From: a virus
IMG/VR virus record: IMGVR_UViG_3300025523_000001
Reading direction: 5' to 3' (one strand)
DNA length: 40,529 nucleotides
A model generated the notes under the pieces. That model had not been told where the DNA came from. It worked only from the letters and a program-made list of their open reading frames with translations, and did not search any database. Positions within the stretch are counted from its first letter, which is position 1. The number at the start of each line of letters is the position of its first letter. A program made the position numbers and the translations under genes. Positions 1 through 40,529 of this stretch are shown one piece after another.

Positions 1-127
1 CACTTTCAACTCCTCCTCTTTTTCCTCTACATATTTCCTCATCAATTGTCGGATGACTTCACTCTTGTTTTGCATCAGTGCTTCATTTACGCGGTCGAAC
101 CGATCAAGAAGGTCCTGATCAATCCTG
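1..127. repeat. Terminal direct repeat, copy 1 (identical to 40403..40529)
   Basis: Bases 1-127 match 40403-40529 letter for letter. This implies a circular or terminally redundant molecule with 40402 bp of unique sequence. Confidence 0.97.
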
Positions 128-147
128 TATTGCCTCGTACGTTTCAC
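1..147 (-). CDS. Ribbon-helix-helix (CopG/Arc/MetJ-like) DNA-binding protein, N-terminal part; the ORF continues across the circular junction into 40402..40166
   Basis: GGGAGG at 155-160 lies 7 nt from GTG 147. The ATG at 153 is only 1 nt from the SD. Translation (M)KRTRQYRIDQDLLDRFDRVNEALMQNKSEVIRQLMRKYVEE fits a strand-helix-helix RHH pattern and stays in frame through base 1. Confidence 0.7.
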   Translation of the reverse strand, partial: MKRTRQYRIDQDLLDRFDRVNEALMQNKSEVIRQLMRKYVEEKEEELKV

Positions 148-190
148 TTTCATACCTCCCATAACCAAAAAGATGGACACAACATGCGCA

Positions 191-219
191 TTGACATGAT
201 AAAAGTTTGTGATTATAAT
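191..219 (+). promoter_or_regulatory. Perfect consensus sigma-A promoter (TTGACA-17 nt-TATAAT) with no downstream ORF
   Basis: TTGACA at 191-196, a 17-nt spacer, and TATAAT at 214-219. The 8-bp palindrome ATGCGCAT (184-191) abuts the -35 box. Confidence 0.75.
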
Positions 220-225
220 TAGTCC

Positions 226-357
226 ATGAACCATAACACAGGGTGTATTTAAATAGTATCTTTTTAATTAATTAACCTGTGCTATTTTTTATTGAACCGT
301 AACATGAGATGTAAGGGAAGAGGGAGCGAACATAAATCCGCTCTCTTTTCTATTTTT
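226..357 (+). ncRNA. Candidate ~130-nt small RNA (sRNA1), antisense to the spacer between the 169-aa gene and the RHH gene
   Basis: It is bracketed by the consensus promoter (191-219) and an intrinsic terminator (320-357). It has no SD-preceded ORF. An internal hairpin pairs CACAGG 236-241 with CCTGTG 277-282. Confidence 0.45.
320..357 (+). terminator. Intrinsic terminator for the plus-strand transcript; it overlaps the stop codon of the minus-strand 169-aa gene
   Basis: The stem pairs 320-328 with 339-347 (9 bp, 2 G-U) around a 10-nt loop. The tail reads TTTCTATTTTT. Confidence 0.6.
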
Positions 358-859
358 CCGGTTTCCCGAATTTTTCCGTAAGCGCAGCTTCTGATATAAA
401 CGTATAGGCGCCGTTACTTTTAAAATGGCCATCCGGATAATCGGCGCCGTCTATCTCTTCCACCGATATGCCCCAAGTTTTTGCGGCGTCCTTCGCTTCC
501 CACACCTTAATGCCCAGCGGTTTAAAAGTTTTTCGCATTTCCCGGTACATTTCGTATGCTTCCGCGCGATTCTTTCGTTTGTTATTACGTTCTGCTATTA
601 TTTCCTTTATTTTATCGGCAGCCGCCAGAAACTCATCTTCATCTACTTCCCATGTTCCAACCGTTTTATAATCTGTTTGTAGTCTAGATTCGCTGTTGTC
701 GAAAGTGGTTGACGGTAAAACCTCTCCAAGGCTGAATATGTAATCTTCCTTAACGGCATGTTCGACAATCGCAAATGCCTCGGCAGCTTTTGGTGTCCCC
801 TTTACAAGCTCCGGGTAAACAGTTTCGGAATAAGACGTTTCTTTATACACAATTTTCAT
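350..859 (-). CDS. Hypothetical protein, 169 aa (accessory island, second gene of the operon)
   Basis: AGGAGG lies 8 nt upstream of ATG 859, and the gene starts 19 nt after the upstream gene. I recognise no motif. Confidence 0.8.
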   Translation of the reverse strand: MKIVYKETSYSETVYPELVKGTPKAAEAFAIVEHAVKEDYIFSLGEVLPSTTFDNSESRLQTDYKTVGTWEVDEDEFLAAADKIKEIIAERNNKRKNRAEAYEMYREMRKTFKPLGIKVWEAKDAAKTWGISVEEIDGADYPDGHFKSNGAYTFISEAALTEKFGKPEK

Positions 860-878
860 TTTTGTTTCCTCCTAATTT

Positions 879-1250
879 TTATGCATTAATTTTAGCGCCT
901 TTAAATCTCCAAAACGCTTTTGTTACCGGTGTATATGCGCCACGTTCTTGTGCCACAATAACACCGTTTTGCAATTCAAGAAACCCTTGTTCTTTACGGT
1001 ATCCGGATCCTGTATAGTAATTTACGTATAAGCGTTCCTTCCCGTATTTTGCCCAGTAGTTAACGGAATAGGAATCGCTCTTCATTACGGAATTGATGTA
1101 GGTTTCAACATCTTCCACCGTAATTTCTTTTGCTTCTTTTGCCTCCTTCCATGCGAGCCGGAGAGATTCTGCAAAGTATTCCTTTACCTTTCCGCCAAAT
1201 TTACGTTGCCCTGCTTTAGCAATCTCCCAAGCCCGTTTCATAACGTTCAT
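879..1250 (-). CDS. Hypothetical protein, 123 aa (accessory island, first gene of the operon)
   Basis: AAAGGAG lies 9 nt upstream of ATG 1250. The N-terminal helix MKRAWEIAKAGQRKFGGKVKEYFAESLRLAWKEAK recalls a motif common in Firmicute mobile-element hypothetical proteins. Function is unknown. Confidence 0.8.
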   Translation of the reverse strand: MNVMKRAWEIAKAGQRKFGGKVKEYFAESLRLAWKEAKEAKEITVEDVETYINSVMKSDSYSVNYWAKYGKERLYVNYYTGSGYRKEQGFLELQNGVIVAQERGAYTPVTKAFWRFKGAKINA

Positions 1251-1281
1251 TTCTCTTATCTCCTTTCCTTATCTTGATTTC

Positions 1282-1310
1282 ATTGTATCATTTTGTATGT
1301 ACATTGTCAA
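1282..1310 (-). promoter_or_regulatory. Near-consensus sigma-A promoter for the 123-aa/169-aa operon
   Basis: The minus strand reads TTGACA (1310-1305), a 17-nt spacer, then TACAAT (1287-1282). The palindrome ATGTACAT (1297-1304) lies directly after the -35 box. Confidence 0.75.
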
Positions 1311-1552: not shown

Positions 1553-2155
1553 TTATTTTAAATTGATGTTTTCTGTTTCCGTACCAAAAGCGCCCGTTTG
1601 GACTTGTACTTTTAGATCAGAAGAATTGGCGACATCTTCGGGCACATCAAAAACAATTCTGCCGCTCATTTCTGATCCTGGGTTTAAATCCTGCATGAAA
1701 AAGCTGTTATCAATAGATCCATCTTCTTTTTGGTTTGCTGACATGCTTGCATCATCATCAGCTTTATATGTCTTAGACCCTAGTTTTAGATTGAAAAAAC
1801 TCGAGTCAACCGTTACGGCTTCATTCCCGTTATTCTTTACATTCAAATCTATGACTAAGAATGTACCGTTTGCCGTTTCCTGTAATGCTGATGGGCCAAC
1901 CTTTTTAGCGGTTGAGGTTTTTGTAACCTTGTACTGCATGTCACCAACTTTAACAGTATCGCCAATTTTATATTCTTTCTTGGATGCAGCTTTTTTAGGC
2001 GAGGAAGCAGTAGTACTCTTGCTATCCTTAGAATCTTTTGCAGAATCGTCACCCCCGCCATTCGAACCTATAGCCCCAGCGACAATAATTACAACAATCA
2101 CCCAGAACCACCATTTCTTATAAAATGGTTTTTTAGTTTTTCCTTCTTTAGCCAC
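1553..2155 (-). CDS. Membrane-anchored DUF4352-family protein (N-terminal TM helix plus extracellular beta-sandwich domain)
   Basis: GTG start at 2155 with a GGGGGAA SD. A TM segment WWFWVIVVIIVAGAIG is followed by a Ser/Lys-rich linker. YKIGDTVKVGDMQYKVT...FLVIDLNVKNNGNEAVTVDSSFF...GRIVFDVP matches the DUF4352 pattern common in Bacillus prophages. Confidence 0.8.
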   Translation of the reverse strand: MAKEGKTKKPFYKKWWFWVIVVIIVAGAIGSNGGGDDSAKDSKDSKSTTASSPKKAASKKEYKIGDTVKVGDMQYKVTKTSTAKKVGPSALQETANGTFLVIDLNVKNNGNEAVTVDSSFFNLKLGSKTYKADDDASMSANQKEDGSIDNSFFMQDLNPGSEMSGRIVFDVPEDVANSSDLKVQVQTGAFGTETENINLK

Positions 2156-9400: not shown

Positions 9401-10635
9401 TGTTAGCCGAAAAAGCACTCTTAGGAAGCTTTCTGAAAGAAAACTATCTGATCGCGGATACGGCAGTTAAGCCGGATCAGTTTCAAGACGATAGAAACCG
9501 ATGCTTATTCAACATCATGAAGGATTTACATAGTAAAGGAAAAAGCGTCGACGTCATAACATTAACCACTTTAGCGGATCCCGAAACATTCGGTGGCGTG
9601 TCGTATCTAAATGAAATAGAAAGCTATGCTAACCCGGAAAAATACGAAGAATACGAACAGCTTGTCATAGAGGCATGGAAGAACCGTGAGAAAACAAACA
9701 TCCTAACGGTTGCACGCGAAGAAGATTGGGATATTAGAAAAGTAATATCCAGCCTGGACGCCATAAACGAGCAGCAAATAGACGATTATACGCCTATAAC
9801 GGATGCCCTGGTAAAGATGTATGAAGCACCATGGCAAGAAGAAAAAGAGAAAAAAGGCGTAACAACAGGACTTACCAACCTAAACAAAATGACAAACGGT
9901 TTTCAAGATGGTGAGTTGACAATTATAGCGGCTAGGCCGAGCATGGGCAAAACGGACGTAATGCTGCACTTTGCAAAGCAGGCTGGATGGTCCGGGAACT
10001 TGCCGATTATATTTTCGCTCGAGATGTCAAAAGAAAGCATAACCAATAGACTAATAGCTTCTACGGGCCGTATAAACCGTCTGAAGATGAATAATCTGTC
10101 CGCCTTAACCGATGCCCAGAAAAAAAATTGGCCGGCTATTATCGGCAAAGTAGGAGATACAAACATCCAAATATTCGATAAGGCTGGACAAACAATCGCG
10201 GAGATGCGGGCAAAAATAAGGAAACTAATGCACAAGTTTCCCGACAGAAAGCCAATTATCTTTATTGACTATTTAACGCTTATCCGGCCGGAACAGTTTT
10301 ACGGCGGGAATGCACATCAACAGGTTACGGAAATCTCGAAAAATCTTAAAAACATGGCAAAAGAATTTAACATACCGGTTATCTGTTTAGCACAGCTATC
10401 CCGGGCGGTTGAAACCAGGAACAACAAACGACCAATGATGAGCGATATTCGGGAGTCTGGGAGCGTAGAACAGGACGCTGATTTAATCATATTTCTTTAC
10501 CGCGAAAAGTATTACAAGAAGGAAATTAATGACGATACGCTCGAGATCATATTGGCAAAACAAAGAAATGGCCCTGTCGGTACAGTTTTAGCACGATACA
10601 ACGAGTTTACGGGGGTGATCGCAGATGAAGGTTAG
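9400..10635 (+). CDS. dnaB: DnaB-like replicative DNA helicase
   Basis: Walker A is ARPSMGKTD and Walker B is IIFIDYLTLI. LAQLSRAVETRNNKRPMMSDIRESGSVEQDADLIIFLYRE is the canonical DnaB C-terminal motif. Confidence 0.93.
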   Translation: MLAEKALLGSFLKENYLIADTAVKPDQFQDDRNRCLFNIMKDLHSKGKSVDVITLTTLADPETFGGVSYLNEIESYANPEKYEEYEQLVIEAWKNREKTNILTVAREEDWDIRKVISSLDAINEQQIDDYTPITDALVKMYEAPWQEEKEKKGVTTGLTNLNKMTNGFQDGELTIIAARPSMGKTDVMLHFAKQAGWSGNLPIIFSLEMSKESITNRLIASTGRINRLKMNNLSALTDAQKKNWPAIIGKVGDTNIQIFDKAGQTIAEMRAKIRKLMHKFPDRKPIIFIDYLTLIRPEQFYGGNAHQQVTEISKNLKNMAKEFNIPVICLAQLSRAVETRNNKRPMMSDIRESGSVEQDADLIIFLYREKYYKKEINDDTLEIILAKQRNGPVGTVLARYNEFTGVIADEG

Positions 10636-11062
10636 GGATGTATACCAGGATGCGATCCGTTATGAAGAACCATTTATGGCCCATTACATTCATTGCCTGC
10701 TGTCTGACGGAAAAATCAATTTGGATGACGACGCGAGTAAGATTTTCCGGGCAGAAATTGATCAGGAAAAATTCCGGCAGTCTTATGAAAAGAACATCTT
10801 GGGAGTTAACAAGGTGAAAATATACTCGCTAAAGTTAAACAAAAACCAATTTGCTTTTATTTTCGCCGAAACCAAACAGGATGCCATGATGTTTTTTCGG
10901 TCCAAGTTTAACCGTGATCCGGTAAATTGTTATGAATATGATATTGATTTTGGCCTTTTGCGCGGGAAAGAATACGTGACATTCCGGAGCCTACGCAAAG
11001 AGCACAATAAATTCCCATCCCTGGCGTTTATTTATGAAAGGAATATGGCCTATGGAATTTAA
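10625..11062 (+). CDS. Hypothetical protein, 145 aa
   Basis: GGGGGTG SD. No recognisable motif. Confidence 0.7.
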   Translation: MKVRDVYQDAIRYEEPFMAHYIHCLLSDGKINLDDDASKIFRAEIDQEKFRQSYEKNILGVNKVKIYSLKLNKNQFAFIFAETKQDAMMFFRSKFNRDPVNCYEYDIDFGLLRGKEYVTFRSLRKEHNKFPSLAFIYERNMAYGI

Positions 11063-12700: not shown

Positions 12701-13107
12701 ATCGAACCGAAAAACTTTCGCAACTATATAAGCAGGCGAATGAGTTAAACGAAGAACTACCAAAAGAATTAATGGACAAGCTTTCCCTCTATGGTCAGGT
12801 ACTGGAGATCATTGGCGGTCTCCACGCCGAATCCGTAAAAGCCTGGAAGCTGGCAGAAGCCAAAAGGCGGGAAACAATCGCAAGCGCCATTGTTTACGGC
12901 GCTGAGTTGGATGGTGTGGCGTACAAAACAGCCAAAGAAAAAGAAGCAGCTGCGGAAGTGATCGGTGCAGAAGCAAGACGAAATGAAGCACTGGCGGAAG
13001 CAGAAGCGCAAAGATGGAGAAATGCCTACACCAGCACGCTGGAAATGATCCAGATTTTAAAAAGGAAATATGAGCACATGAAAGAGGTAGCAAAAGGTGG
13101 AATTTGA
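12697..13107 (+). CDS. Hypothetical coiled-coil protein, 136 aa
   Basis: ATGA overlap with the upstream stop. The sequence is Ala/Glu-rich and helical. Confidence 0.65.
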   Translation: MNRTEKLSQLYKQANELNEELPKELMDKLSLYGQVLEIIGGLHAESVKAWKLAEAKRRETIASAIVYGAELDGVAYKTAKEKEAAAEVIGAEARRNEALAEAEAQRWRNAYTSTLEMIQILKRKYEHMKEVAKGGI

Positions 13108-15503: not shown

Positions 15504-15986
15504 TTGGTAGATCAATTATCATTACTCATTCCCGAAATAGATAGAGATGCAACACAGGCAAACGTAGAAAAAGCCATTGCAAAATATAGATATTACTCAC
15601 TGCAAACGGAAGATGAGTTTTTGCCAAAGATAACAGCCAGTTATTCCATGATTCCGCCAACAAATACAAATGCTTTTCATTCGTCCACAGAGGACTCAGC
15701 AATCCGTATGGTGGAATTTGAACGTGAGAGGATGGAATACCTTACCCGTTTCGCAAAAGCCGTAAATAGGCTTTCTGCACGCGAGAGAGAGGCATTTATT
15801 CTAAAGTACATGGGAGAGGAAGAACTTTATGATTATGAAGTGTACAACAAGCTAGGAATGGGAGAAACCTATTACTATACAAAGTTTAAGCCAAGGATGT
15901 TTTACAAATTCGCCATTGCAATGCGGATCGAAGTATATAAAACAAATTCGCAAAGACAAAATAAAGAAAACGCGAATGATTTATAA
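15504..15986 (+). CDS. ArpU-family phage late transcriptional regulator (sigma-like)
   Basis: TTG start after GGGAGGG. ANVEKAIAKYRYY...ITASYSMIPPTNTNAFHSSTEDSA...ERMEYLTRFAKAVNRLSAREREAFILKYM fits ArpU/RinA-type regulators. It is the last gene before the packaging genes. Confidence 0.75.
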   Translation: MVDQLSLLIPEIDRDATQANVEKAIAKYRYYSLQTEDEFLPKITASYSMIPPTNTNAFHSSTEDSAIRMVEFERERMEYLTRFAKAVNRLSAREREAFILKYMGEEELYDYEVYNKLGMGETYYYTKFKPRMFYKFAIAMRIEVYKTNSQRQNKENANDL

Positions 15987-39890: not shown

Positions 39891-40020
39891 GAAATTTTAA
39901 TTTTGCTGTTTCTATCGGGATATAACTTGTTTTTATTGGCTAATTTTATTTGCAGCGTCTCCCACCTGACCGTCACTTACCGGACGGATTTTTCGCTGCC
40001 GCCAGTCCATACTACTGTGC

Positions 40021-40045
40021 TAGCGATGGCAGGAGTCGAACCTAC
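40021..40045 (-). other. tRNA 3'-fragment-like sequence (complete T-arm plus 7 nt), not a complete tRNA
   Basis: The minus strand reads GTAGG-TTCGACT-CCTGC-CATCGCT-A. No complementary 5' acceptor strand or anticodon arm lies upstream. It matches 13 of 14 positions of the T-loop segment at 2412-2425. Confidence 0.4.
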
Positions 40046-40088
40046 CACCCTTGCGACTGGTCCCACGCATGAAATGGATATTTTTTTT

Positions 40089-40165: not shown

Positions 40166-40529
40166 CTATTCAGTTTTCCAAGTTTCCGCTGTTTCTTTCA
40201 TCTCCGTCATGGCCTGTTTTTCCGTGGCATGCCAGCTTATTCCACTTTCTCCGTCCGGGATGTTGTACCCCGGCACTTCGTCCGCATACGGATATTCCGG
40301 CCCCCAAGCGAAAAAGTATTTTCCATTTTCGGCTTTCCCGACGGTATACGCTTCGTCGTCATTTGGGAAATTATCACGTATTTCAATGATTTCTTTAACT
40401 TTCACTTTCAACTCCTCCTCTTTTTCCTCTACATATTTCCTCATCAATTGTCGGATGACTTCACTCTTGTTTTGCATCAGTGCTTCATTTACGCGGTCGA
40501 ACCGATCAAGAAGGTCCTGATCAATCCTG
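40166..40529 (-). CDS. Same RHH gene: C-terminal ~78-aa domain of unknown function (40166..40402) plus the duplicated N-terminal codons inside the terminal repeat
   Basis: The ORF track gives 40166..40477, and the frame stays open to the window end. It joins base 1 in frame for a total of ~127 aa. I do not recognise the C-terminal sequence IRDNFPNDDEAYTVGKAENGKYFFAWGPEYPYADEVPGYNIPDGESGISWH. Confidence 0.7.
   Translation of the reverse strand, partial: RIDQDLLDRFDRVNEALMQNKSEVIRQLMRKYVEEKEEELKVKVKEIIEIRDNFPNDDEAYTVGKAENGKYFFAWGPEYPYADEVPGYNIPDGESGISWHATEKQAMTEMKETAETWKTE
40403..40529. repeat. Terminal direct repeat, copy 2 (identical to 1..127)
   Basis: Exact 127-bp duplicate of the window start. 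It duplicates part of the RHH gene. Confidence 0.97.

Follow-up and report, generated by a model that had tools for sequence, protein, structure and literature searches.

The window analysed here is the whole 40,529-nt stretch of IMG/VR virus record IMGVR_UViG_3300025523_000001, a circular contig whose first 127 bp are repeated exactly at its end (1-127 and 40403-40529), which gives a genome of 40,402 bp for this temperate phage of Heyndrickxia coagulans. An accessory island is located between the lysis genes and int in the orientation opposite to the late genes, a placement that the first-pass annotation had correct, and encodes a 123-amino acid (aa) protein, a 169-aa protein and a ribbon-helix-helix (RHH) protein with an added C-terminal domain (CTD). 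The best-defined element of this island is a small RNA gene and not a protein. The 186 nt between the stop codon of the 169-aa gene and the start codon of the RHH-CTD gene, overlooked by the earlier reader, hold a repeat-spacer-repeat unit on the plus strand (225-320) with its own terminator. As read from the sequence, this unit has every computable feature of a viral cas-repressing CRISPR RNA (crRNA) mimic, or Cracr. It is likely to be an RNA of this kind that copies a regulatory RNA of Heyndrickxia coagulans and makes the type I-B Cascade of this host shut off its own cas operon.

The phage mini-array and its host counterpart

The mini-array is preceded by a consensus promoter that the first-pass annotation had counted among the two strongest of the island; this promoter lies on the plus strand and points away from the RHH-CTD gene, towards the 3' end of the 169-aa gene (Table 1). 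The pattern TTGACA-N17-TATAAT, with one mismatch allowed, occurs only three times in the whole window, each time inside the island; shuffled sequences contained a mean of 0.37 such sites and none of 100 shuffles reached three. In the first repeat (R1), a compensatory change (ACAC/GTGT) preserves the 4-bp hairpin, and the repeat terminates in the 8-nt handle ATTTAAAT. The second repeat (R2) keeps the 5' 23 nt and the hairpin and is degenerate at its 3' end only. The repeat-spacer period of 66 nt (30 + 36) is that of the host array. The hairpin of the terminator is predicted at -18.9 kcal/mol (z -4.8) on the plus strand, and at -14.0 kcal/mol without a U run on the minus strand. The plus strand is also the sense orientation of the repeat family, as judged from the type I-B locus of a B. 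cereus plasmid and from the H. coagulans locus, and the promoter, the sense orientation and the plus strand-specific terminator are mutually consistent.

Copies of the unit were found in L009, a prophage within an H. coagulans genome, and in IMG/VR contigs. The unit is conserved behind three different upstream sequences, which distinguish the variants V1/V2, V3 and V4, and each of these carries a promoter directly before R1; promoter-like hexamers are present at the equivalent place in all variants. The circular 40.4-kb phage genome contains no cas genes, and the unit is encoded outside any CRISPR-cas locus.

The type I-B repeat of H. coagulans strains 2-6, H-1 and P38 is GTTGAACTTTAACATTGGATGTATTTAAAT (PMC8954581, PMC3905273), and this repeat was confirmed in locus L018. 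The cas locus of strain H-1 was located through a Cas7 homologue. All nine H. coagulans type I-B loci examined (H-1 and eight others) carry an identical mini-array upstream of cas6 and divergent from it, composed of psiR1, a 28-nt psiS and psiR2. Both phage repeats are members of this H. coagulans repeat family, and R1 is identical to the host type I-B repeat at 23 of 30 positions and to psiR1 at 22 of 30. R1 and psiR1 have GAACCATAAC in common at a place where the array repeat has GAACTTTAAC, so that the phage unit descends from the regulatory mini-array and not from the array. Among the GTDB species representatives, neither an exact copy of the host repeat nor an array with an R1-type stem was found.

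The phage spacer is a copy of the host psiS over its seed. The two agree at 19 of the first 22 nt (positions 1-5, 7-11, 13-17 and 19-22) and the mismatches are confined to positions 6, 12 and 18. Every sixth spacer base is flipped out and unpaired in type I Cascade.

The type I-B array of H-1 contains 48 spacers, four of which match the window (Table 1). The TCA protospacer adjacent motif (PAM) that flanks the target described below is found at two of these four protospacers in the phage. The type I-B systems of H. coagulans therefore target this phage directly, and because the host arrays carry exactly matching spacers, the phage needs such a weapon.

Table 1. Features of the island, of the host mini-array and of the phage sites matched by spacers of H-1
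Feature	Coordinates	Strand	Description
Operon promoter	1310-1282	-	TTGACA-17-TACAAT with TG extended -10; palindrome ATGTACAT (1297-1304) abuts the -35 box
123-aa gene	1250-879	-	N-terminal ~50 aa belong to Pfam PF07410 Phage_Gp111
169-aa gene	859-350	-	Near-ORFan with a probable C-terminal helix-turn-helix (HTH)
Terminator of the mini-array	316..357	+	Intrinsic; 13-bp stem (316-328/339-351) then U run; overlaps the last codons of the 169-aa gene
Repeat 2 (R2)	291..320	+	ATTGAACCGTAACATGAGATGTAAGGGAAG; Rfam CRISPR-DR3 positions 8-30, 24.7 bits (match 291-313)
Spacer-like sequence	255..290	+	AGTATCTTTTTAATTAATTAACCTGTGCTATTTTTT; 36 nt
Repeat 1 (R1)	225..254	+	CATGAACCATAACACAGGGTGTATTTAAAT; Rfam CRISPR-DR3 full length, 33.3 bits, E 0.011 (local scan)
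Mini-array promoter	191..219	+	TTGACA-17-TATAAT, 12/12, which no other site in the window reaches; -10 ends 6 nt before R1
Palindrome, candidate operator	184..191		ATGCGCAT; overlaps the first base of the -35 box of the 191-219 promoter
RHH-CTD gene	157..1 then 40402..40176	-	Wraps the circular junction; 5' part 1..157, 3' part 40176..40402
DUF4352 gene	1553-2155	-	200-aa membrane-anchored protein; phrog_806
Protospacer of H-1 spacer 32	12815-12850	+	36/36, PAM TTG
Protospacer of H-1 spacer 48	9501-9534		34/34, PAM CCG
Protospacer of H-1 spacer 45	4526-4491	-	35/36, PAM TCA
Protospacer of H-1 spacer 29	near 15718	-	31/35, PAM TCA
Host mini-array psiR1			CTTGAACCATAACCTTTTATGTATTTAAAC
Host mini-array psiS			AGTATTTTTTTTATTAACTAACAATATT; 28 nt
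Host mini-array psiR2			GTTGAACTTTAACACGTTGTGTATGGAAGC

Target site upstream of cas6 and proposed mechanism

The target of both spacers is TCA followed by AGTATATTTTTTATTAAATAA. It is situated in the interval from the host mini-array to cas6, 93-94 nt upstream of the cas6 ATG, and directly adjoins the -35 box of the predicted cas6 promoter (TTTACA-17-TAAAAT). In six of the nine loci, psiS and the phage spacer both pair with this target at every non-flipped position from 1 to 21 and then diverge; strain 2-6 is one of those with the full pairing over 21 nt. Within the 21-kb H-1 locus the target is the best non-array site for both spacers, and even the 12-nt seed seen in H-1 was reached by only 62 of 20,000 shuffles of the 159-nt interval.

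The following mechanism is proposed. The plus-strand promoter would transcribe the repeat-spacer-repeat unit up to the terminator, and the host Cas6 would cut both repeat hairpins to release a crRNA-like RNA of about 66 nt, in which the handle would be followed by the 36-nt spacer and then by a hairpin at the 3' end. It would be taken up by the type I-B Cascade of the host, where the seed copied from the host mini-array upstream of cas6 could direct it to the TCA-flanked site, with which it pairs in silico over positions 1-21. By analogy with CreR and the Cracrs, the partial pairing would lead to binding by Cascade without cleavage by Cas3 and to repression of the cas6-cas8b-cas7-cas5-cas3 operon. 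The phage RNA may also compete with the crRNAs that target the phage.

Cracr RNAs have been described by Liu et al. (bioRxiv 10.1101/2024.10.29.618823), and Shmakov et al. (PMC10120712) report mini-arrays of type I-B phages whose seed is also that of the host mini-array upstream of cas6, in the Clostridium phages c-st and phiSM101 against the type I-B system of C. perfringens. The unit resembles these regulatory mini-arrays in being borne by a phage outside a cas locus, in its host-type repeats, in its place in an accessory island, in its PAM-proximal seed from the host mini-array and in a target with a type I-B PAM between the host mini-array and cas6. Host-type repeat-like sequences are recognised on both sides of the spacer by the CRISPR-DR3 model, and R1 keeps both hairpin and handle. 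The spacer exceeds the at least nine PAM-proximal bases in common with a host CreR/CreA spacer that Liu et al. give as a criterion. A partial target flanked by a PAM in a cas or toxin promoter has its counterpart in the site before cas6, where the promoter is a predicted one. The unit differs from the described cases in its host, which is the Bacillaceae species H. coagulans, and in its spacer of 36 nt, which is longer than the 28-nt host psiS, whereas the published phage spacers are shorter. It also differs in that both phage repeats keep a Cas6-type hairpin and in that the RHH-CTD gene is divergent from the unit. With the host CreR (Cas-regulating RNA) and the CreA of CreTA modules, the unit shares the psiR-psiS-psiR arrangement, partial complementarity to the target and the seed of the H. 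coagulans mini-array; it differs in being carried by a phage, in its much stronger promoter and in its presumed purpose, which is to silence immunity and not to tune it.

Several observations weigh against this interpretation. A deletion of one T in the target of two of the nine loci, H-1 and L028, cuts the pairing to the 12-nt seed. The spacer variant of V2 and V4 (AGCATC) has a seed mismatch at position 3 against all nine targets, and the cas6 promoter is a prediction only. Spacer positions 22-36 have no match that accounts for them; pairing of this stretch with R1 (CACAGG/CCUGUG) is possible, and because it also ends in a U run, some transcripts might stop before R2. The spacer is also AT-rich and of low complexity. 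The phage copies are all closely related to one another, so little can be concluded about selection from their conservation. Finally, in one V4 lysogen the host mini-array is present alongside the prophage unit, while phage and host mini-arrays tend not to co-occur according to Shmakov et al. (PMC10120712). The assembly of this lysogen, GCA_036225645.1 (L009 and L027), has an intact type I-B locus together with the host mini-array and the V4 prophage unit.

Phage and host would make a matched pair that exemplifies a strategy described only recently, the use of a phage crRNA mimic to make Cascade switch off its own operon. The system concerned is the type I-B system of a Bacillaceae species, and no tested type I-B case was found in the literature passages covered. 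The idea is directly testable because every partner has been identified: the RNA, the host mini-array that it copies, the PAM-flanked target in nine strains with natural variants, and the host spacers against the phage. Because H. coagulans serves as a probiotic and in industrial fermentation, resistance to phages and genetic tools built on CRISPR are of practical importance for this species.

Island proteins and alternative explanations

The first-pass annotation had compared the island to an operon of anti-CRISPR (acr) and anti-CRISPR-associated (aca) genes, in which the 123-aa and/or 169-aa proteins would be anti-CRISPR or anti-defence proteins and the RHH protein an Aca-like repressor. This arrangement is rather unlikely; it could exist alongside the RNA mechanism. 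In common with acr-aca operons, among which are Acr-Aca fusions found together with type I-F Cracrs (AcrIF24, for example), the island has a strong promoter followed by small genes, palindromes at its -35 boxes and a small DNA-binding protein that carries an additional domain. Racr (RNA anti-CRISPR) and Cracr genes often adjoin acr genes (PMC10651486; PMC10120712; Liu et al.). The operon promoter, both reading frames, their strong Shine-Dalgarno (SD) sequences (AGGAG and AGGAGG) and their spacing of 19 nt were all found as the first-pass annotation had listed them. Its proposed check for co-occurrence also gave a positive result, as the 123-aa, 169-aa and RHH-CTD genes are found together in related H. 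coagulans contigs and in the two other prophage backgrounds from which sequence on the RHH side could be obtained. The 169-aa gene occurs only alongside the mini-array.

Homology of the cargo genes or of the regulator to Acr or Aca proteins was not found in sequence and fold searches of the PDB, which includes solved Acr structures; the sequence searches with the island proteins gave no match to any entry, and Pfam identified just RHH_1 and Phage_Gp111. A scan of the island proteins against NCBIfam gave nothing meaningful, and the suggested screen for defence systems, run with PADLOC, which holds defence models only, gave no match for the four island proteins at E values up to 1. The 123-aa protein, said earlier to fit no family, is assignable to Pfam Phage_Gp111 with a match above the cutoff (E 1.7e-18), and the PHROG families that it matches (phrog_8487) carry no functional annotation.

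The 169-aa protein had been called unassignable, and it is indeed a near-ORFan with only three matches among 1.84 billion representatives; its one close relative is in H. coagulans. It does, however, look like a DNA-binding protein with a probable C-terminal HTH. The C-terminus of its AlphaFold2 model (residues ~100-169) has a predicted local distance difference test (pLDDT) score above 90, this part aligns with phage HTH proteins in BFVD (probability 1.0, E 0.013-0.05), and a distant homologue has a sub-threshold match to HTH_59. The family profile of the 169-aa protein showed no similarity to the HTH_59 protein of L025, a related island. An assignment as an excisionase was rejected as the PHROG match was too weak (E 0.094).

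The 127-aa RHH protein with an unfamiliar C-terminal domain was confirmed, with a Pfam RHH_1 match above the gathering score (E 6.5e-5) and no PDB fold match to the model of the CTD; the 169-aa model likewise gave none. The conserved C-terminal domain, for which the 3' part of the gene beyond the circular junction codes, is predicted at a pLDDT of ~87-93. The GTG at 157 gives a product of 127 aa and an alternative ATG at 163 gives 129 aa. The GTG is the preferred start because the SD spacing fits, the N-terminus is typical of the family (MKRxRQ) and the earlier reader arrived at 127 aa. The RHH-CTD gene is on the same strand as the operon but, unlike the regulator gene of acr-aca operons, is set apart from it: 186 nt with the convergent RNA gene lie between it and the stop of the 169-aa gene. 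Read-through from the 169-aa gene into the RHH-CTD gene, a putative third gene of the operon, is possible because the hairpin has no U run on the minus strand.

The RHH-CTD protein has 89 relatives, found in prophages of Heyndrickxia, Caldibacillus and Caldifermentibacillus. In the other genera the RHH gene closes a run of small genes on the same strand between lysis and int and abuts the genes upstream of it, and a Gp111 gene opens such a run in two of the four contexts examined (L024 and L025). A joint Rfam scan of six related loci was too insensitive, and the islands of Caldibacillus and Caldifermentibacillus were then examined by a direct mismatch scan, in which no CRISPR-like repeat appeared. 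Since similar islands occur elsewhere without such repeats, which also counts against the acr-aca explanation, the Gp111 and RHH-CTD genes are frame genes of the island and do not go specifically with the RNA. By their distribution in the sequences compared, the 169-aa gene and the mini-array are specific to H. coagulans phages.

The palindromes noted earlier are indeed present at the -35 boxes, although the second of the two promoters is on the plus strand and serves the mini-array. The palindrome ATGCGCAT is found in the variants V1 and V2 only, and V3 and V4 differ at this place: V3 has AACTTTCA-N11-TGAAAGTT around the -35 box, and V4 has a different upstream sequence although its RHH N-terminus is near-identical. 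In the prophage L009, a palindrome-bearing block of 20 bp, atttttaaaaaaTGTATTTACATGTAAATACA, is present twice (9545-9564 and 10703-10722), each time forming a promoter TTTACA-17-TATAAT; one copy precedes the 123-aa gene and its operon and the other precedes the RHH gene, and the block is a shared candidate operator, as would suit an acr-aca operon. The suggestion that such palindromes act as operators is supported in general by L009, while no consistent motif for a shared RHH operator was found across the variants. The RHH-CTD and 169-aa proteins would most likely regulate the promoters of the island through the palindromes.

Overall, the features listed in the first-pass annotation were found where it had placed them; the plus-strand orientation of the second promoter and the RNA gene between the RHH-CTD and 169-aa genes were not recognised in it. 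Its placement of the island, the co-occurrence of the genes and, in spirit, the anti-CRISPR guess have held up; the evidence for that guess comes from the overlooked RNA gene and not from the island proteins.

A wider proposal is that the Gp111 to RHH-CTD frame is a general anti-defence island of Bacillaceae prophages, in which the RHH-CTD protein would be both regulator and inhibitor, a type I-B counterpart of AcrIF24 working with the crRNA mimic, and the 169-aa protein would be a type I-B anti-CRISPR or Cascade-directed factor. This is unlikely on present evidence; if true, the conserved frame genes would be markers for new anti-defence cargo. The island offers an RHH protein with a new, confidently predicted CTD and a near-ORFan as candidate regulators or inhibitors.

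The RNA might also be a pure decoy of the Racr type that soaks up Cas6 and Cascade subunits, with a spacer-like part that has no specific target. The strong promoter directly before a repeat is as in solitary repeat units (PMC10651486), related phages (L001, L004 and L016) carry truly solitary repeats of this family, and early termination of transcripts could result from the alternative fold and its internal U run. The promoter-proximal repeat mimic in a prophage is shared with Racrs, and competition for Cas proteins would be expected of both. The phage repeat is not solitary, however; a second repeat with an intact hairpin follows at the exact CRISPR spacing, and the spacer between them has an identifiable target. 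A decoy would need neither the host regulatory seed, with its mismatches only at 6, 12 and 18, nor the PAM-flanked target before cas6, and this explanation is quite improbable. The solitary repeats of the three related phages, which follow directly after promoter-like sequences, are themselves candidates for further Racr- or Cracr-like RNAs; in L016 (Clostridium phage CWou-2020a), the repeat at 2498-2527 is then followed by a hairpin and a T run.

Still less probable is an RNA that mimics a CreA antitoxin and silences a CreT-like toxin guarding the CRISPR system, instead of repressing cas. An 18-codon ORF (MKVNVKYSQTFIKYIFIK) between the host mini-array and cas6, at 7130-7186 of L018 and at the equivalent place in L027-L034, contains the target site and could be CreT-like, and CreTA modules are known in type I-B systems (Liu et al.). 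Against this, neither a promoter nor an SD sequence was predicted for the ORF, and the site abuts the -35 box of a promoter-like sequence directly before cas6, which is the layout of type I-B autoregulatory mini-arrays (PMC10120712).

A one-spacer array for superinfection exclusion, directing Cascade and Cas3 to cleave a competing phage, is very improbable. Virus-borne mini-arrays for interviral conflict exist (PMC6858448), and the unit shares with them a single spacer without cas genes in a viral genome; its spacer has the canonical length of 36 nt. It differs in that its spacer matches no virus and partially matches the promoter region of the host cas genes: a search with exact 20-nt tiles, from which protospacers interrupting both tiles escape, found no protospacer in IMG/VR or the JGI metagenomes and returned the arrays themselves and two chance matches only. 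No significant self-target was found in the window, where the best site agrees at 25 of 36 positions against a shuffle maximum of 23. The spacer is also fixed across backgrounds and matches the host regulatory spacer. A non-functional relic recombined from the host CRISPR-cas locus, from whose mini-array R1 and the spacer seed clearly derive, is hardly to be expected with a perfect promoter, hairpins that are kept (one by compensatory change), a dedicated terminator and persistence behind three different upstream sequences that each keep a promoter before R1.

Genome setting of the island

A search of GenBank phage DNA with bases 1-2500 gave the DUF4352 gene as the sole match. A 91-kb contig, Ga0207789_1000082, carries two diverged copies of the island (L007 and L008). 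Between the lysin terminator and the RHH stop codon, at 40020-40070, there is a stretch similar to the 3' half of a tRNA (GGTTCGACTCCTGCCA, minus strand), which may be an att remnant. ARAGORN did not call a tRNA at this place, no tRNA genes were called in the window, and the sequence is unrelated to the tRNA that adjoins the prophage L009.

The DUF4352 gene that adjoins the island is likely a prophage moron, and the N-terminal region of its product resembles superinfection-exclusion (Sie-like) PHROGs. Between the operon promoter and this gene, the plus strand at 1390-1515 contains a near-consensus promoter (TAGACA-17-TATAAT, 11/12) followed about 70 nt downstream by a hairpin and T run (1487-1506). 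This segment may encode a small RNA of about 90 nt, and its sequence is kept in related contigs.

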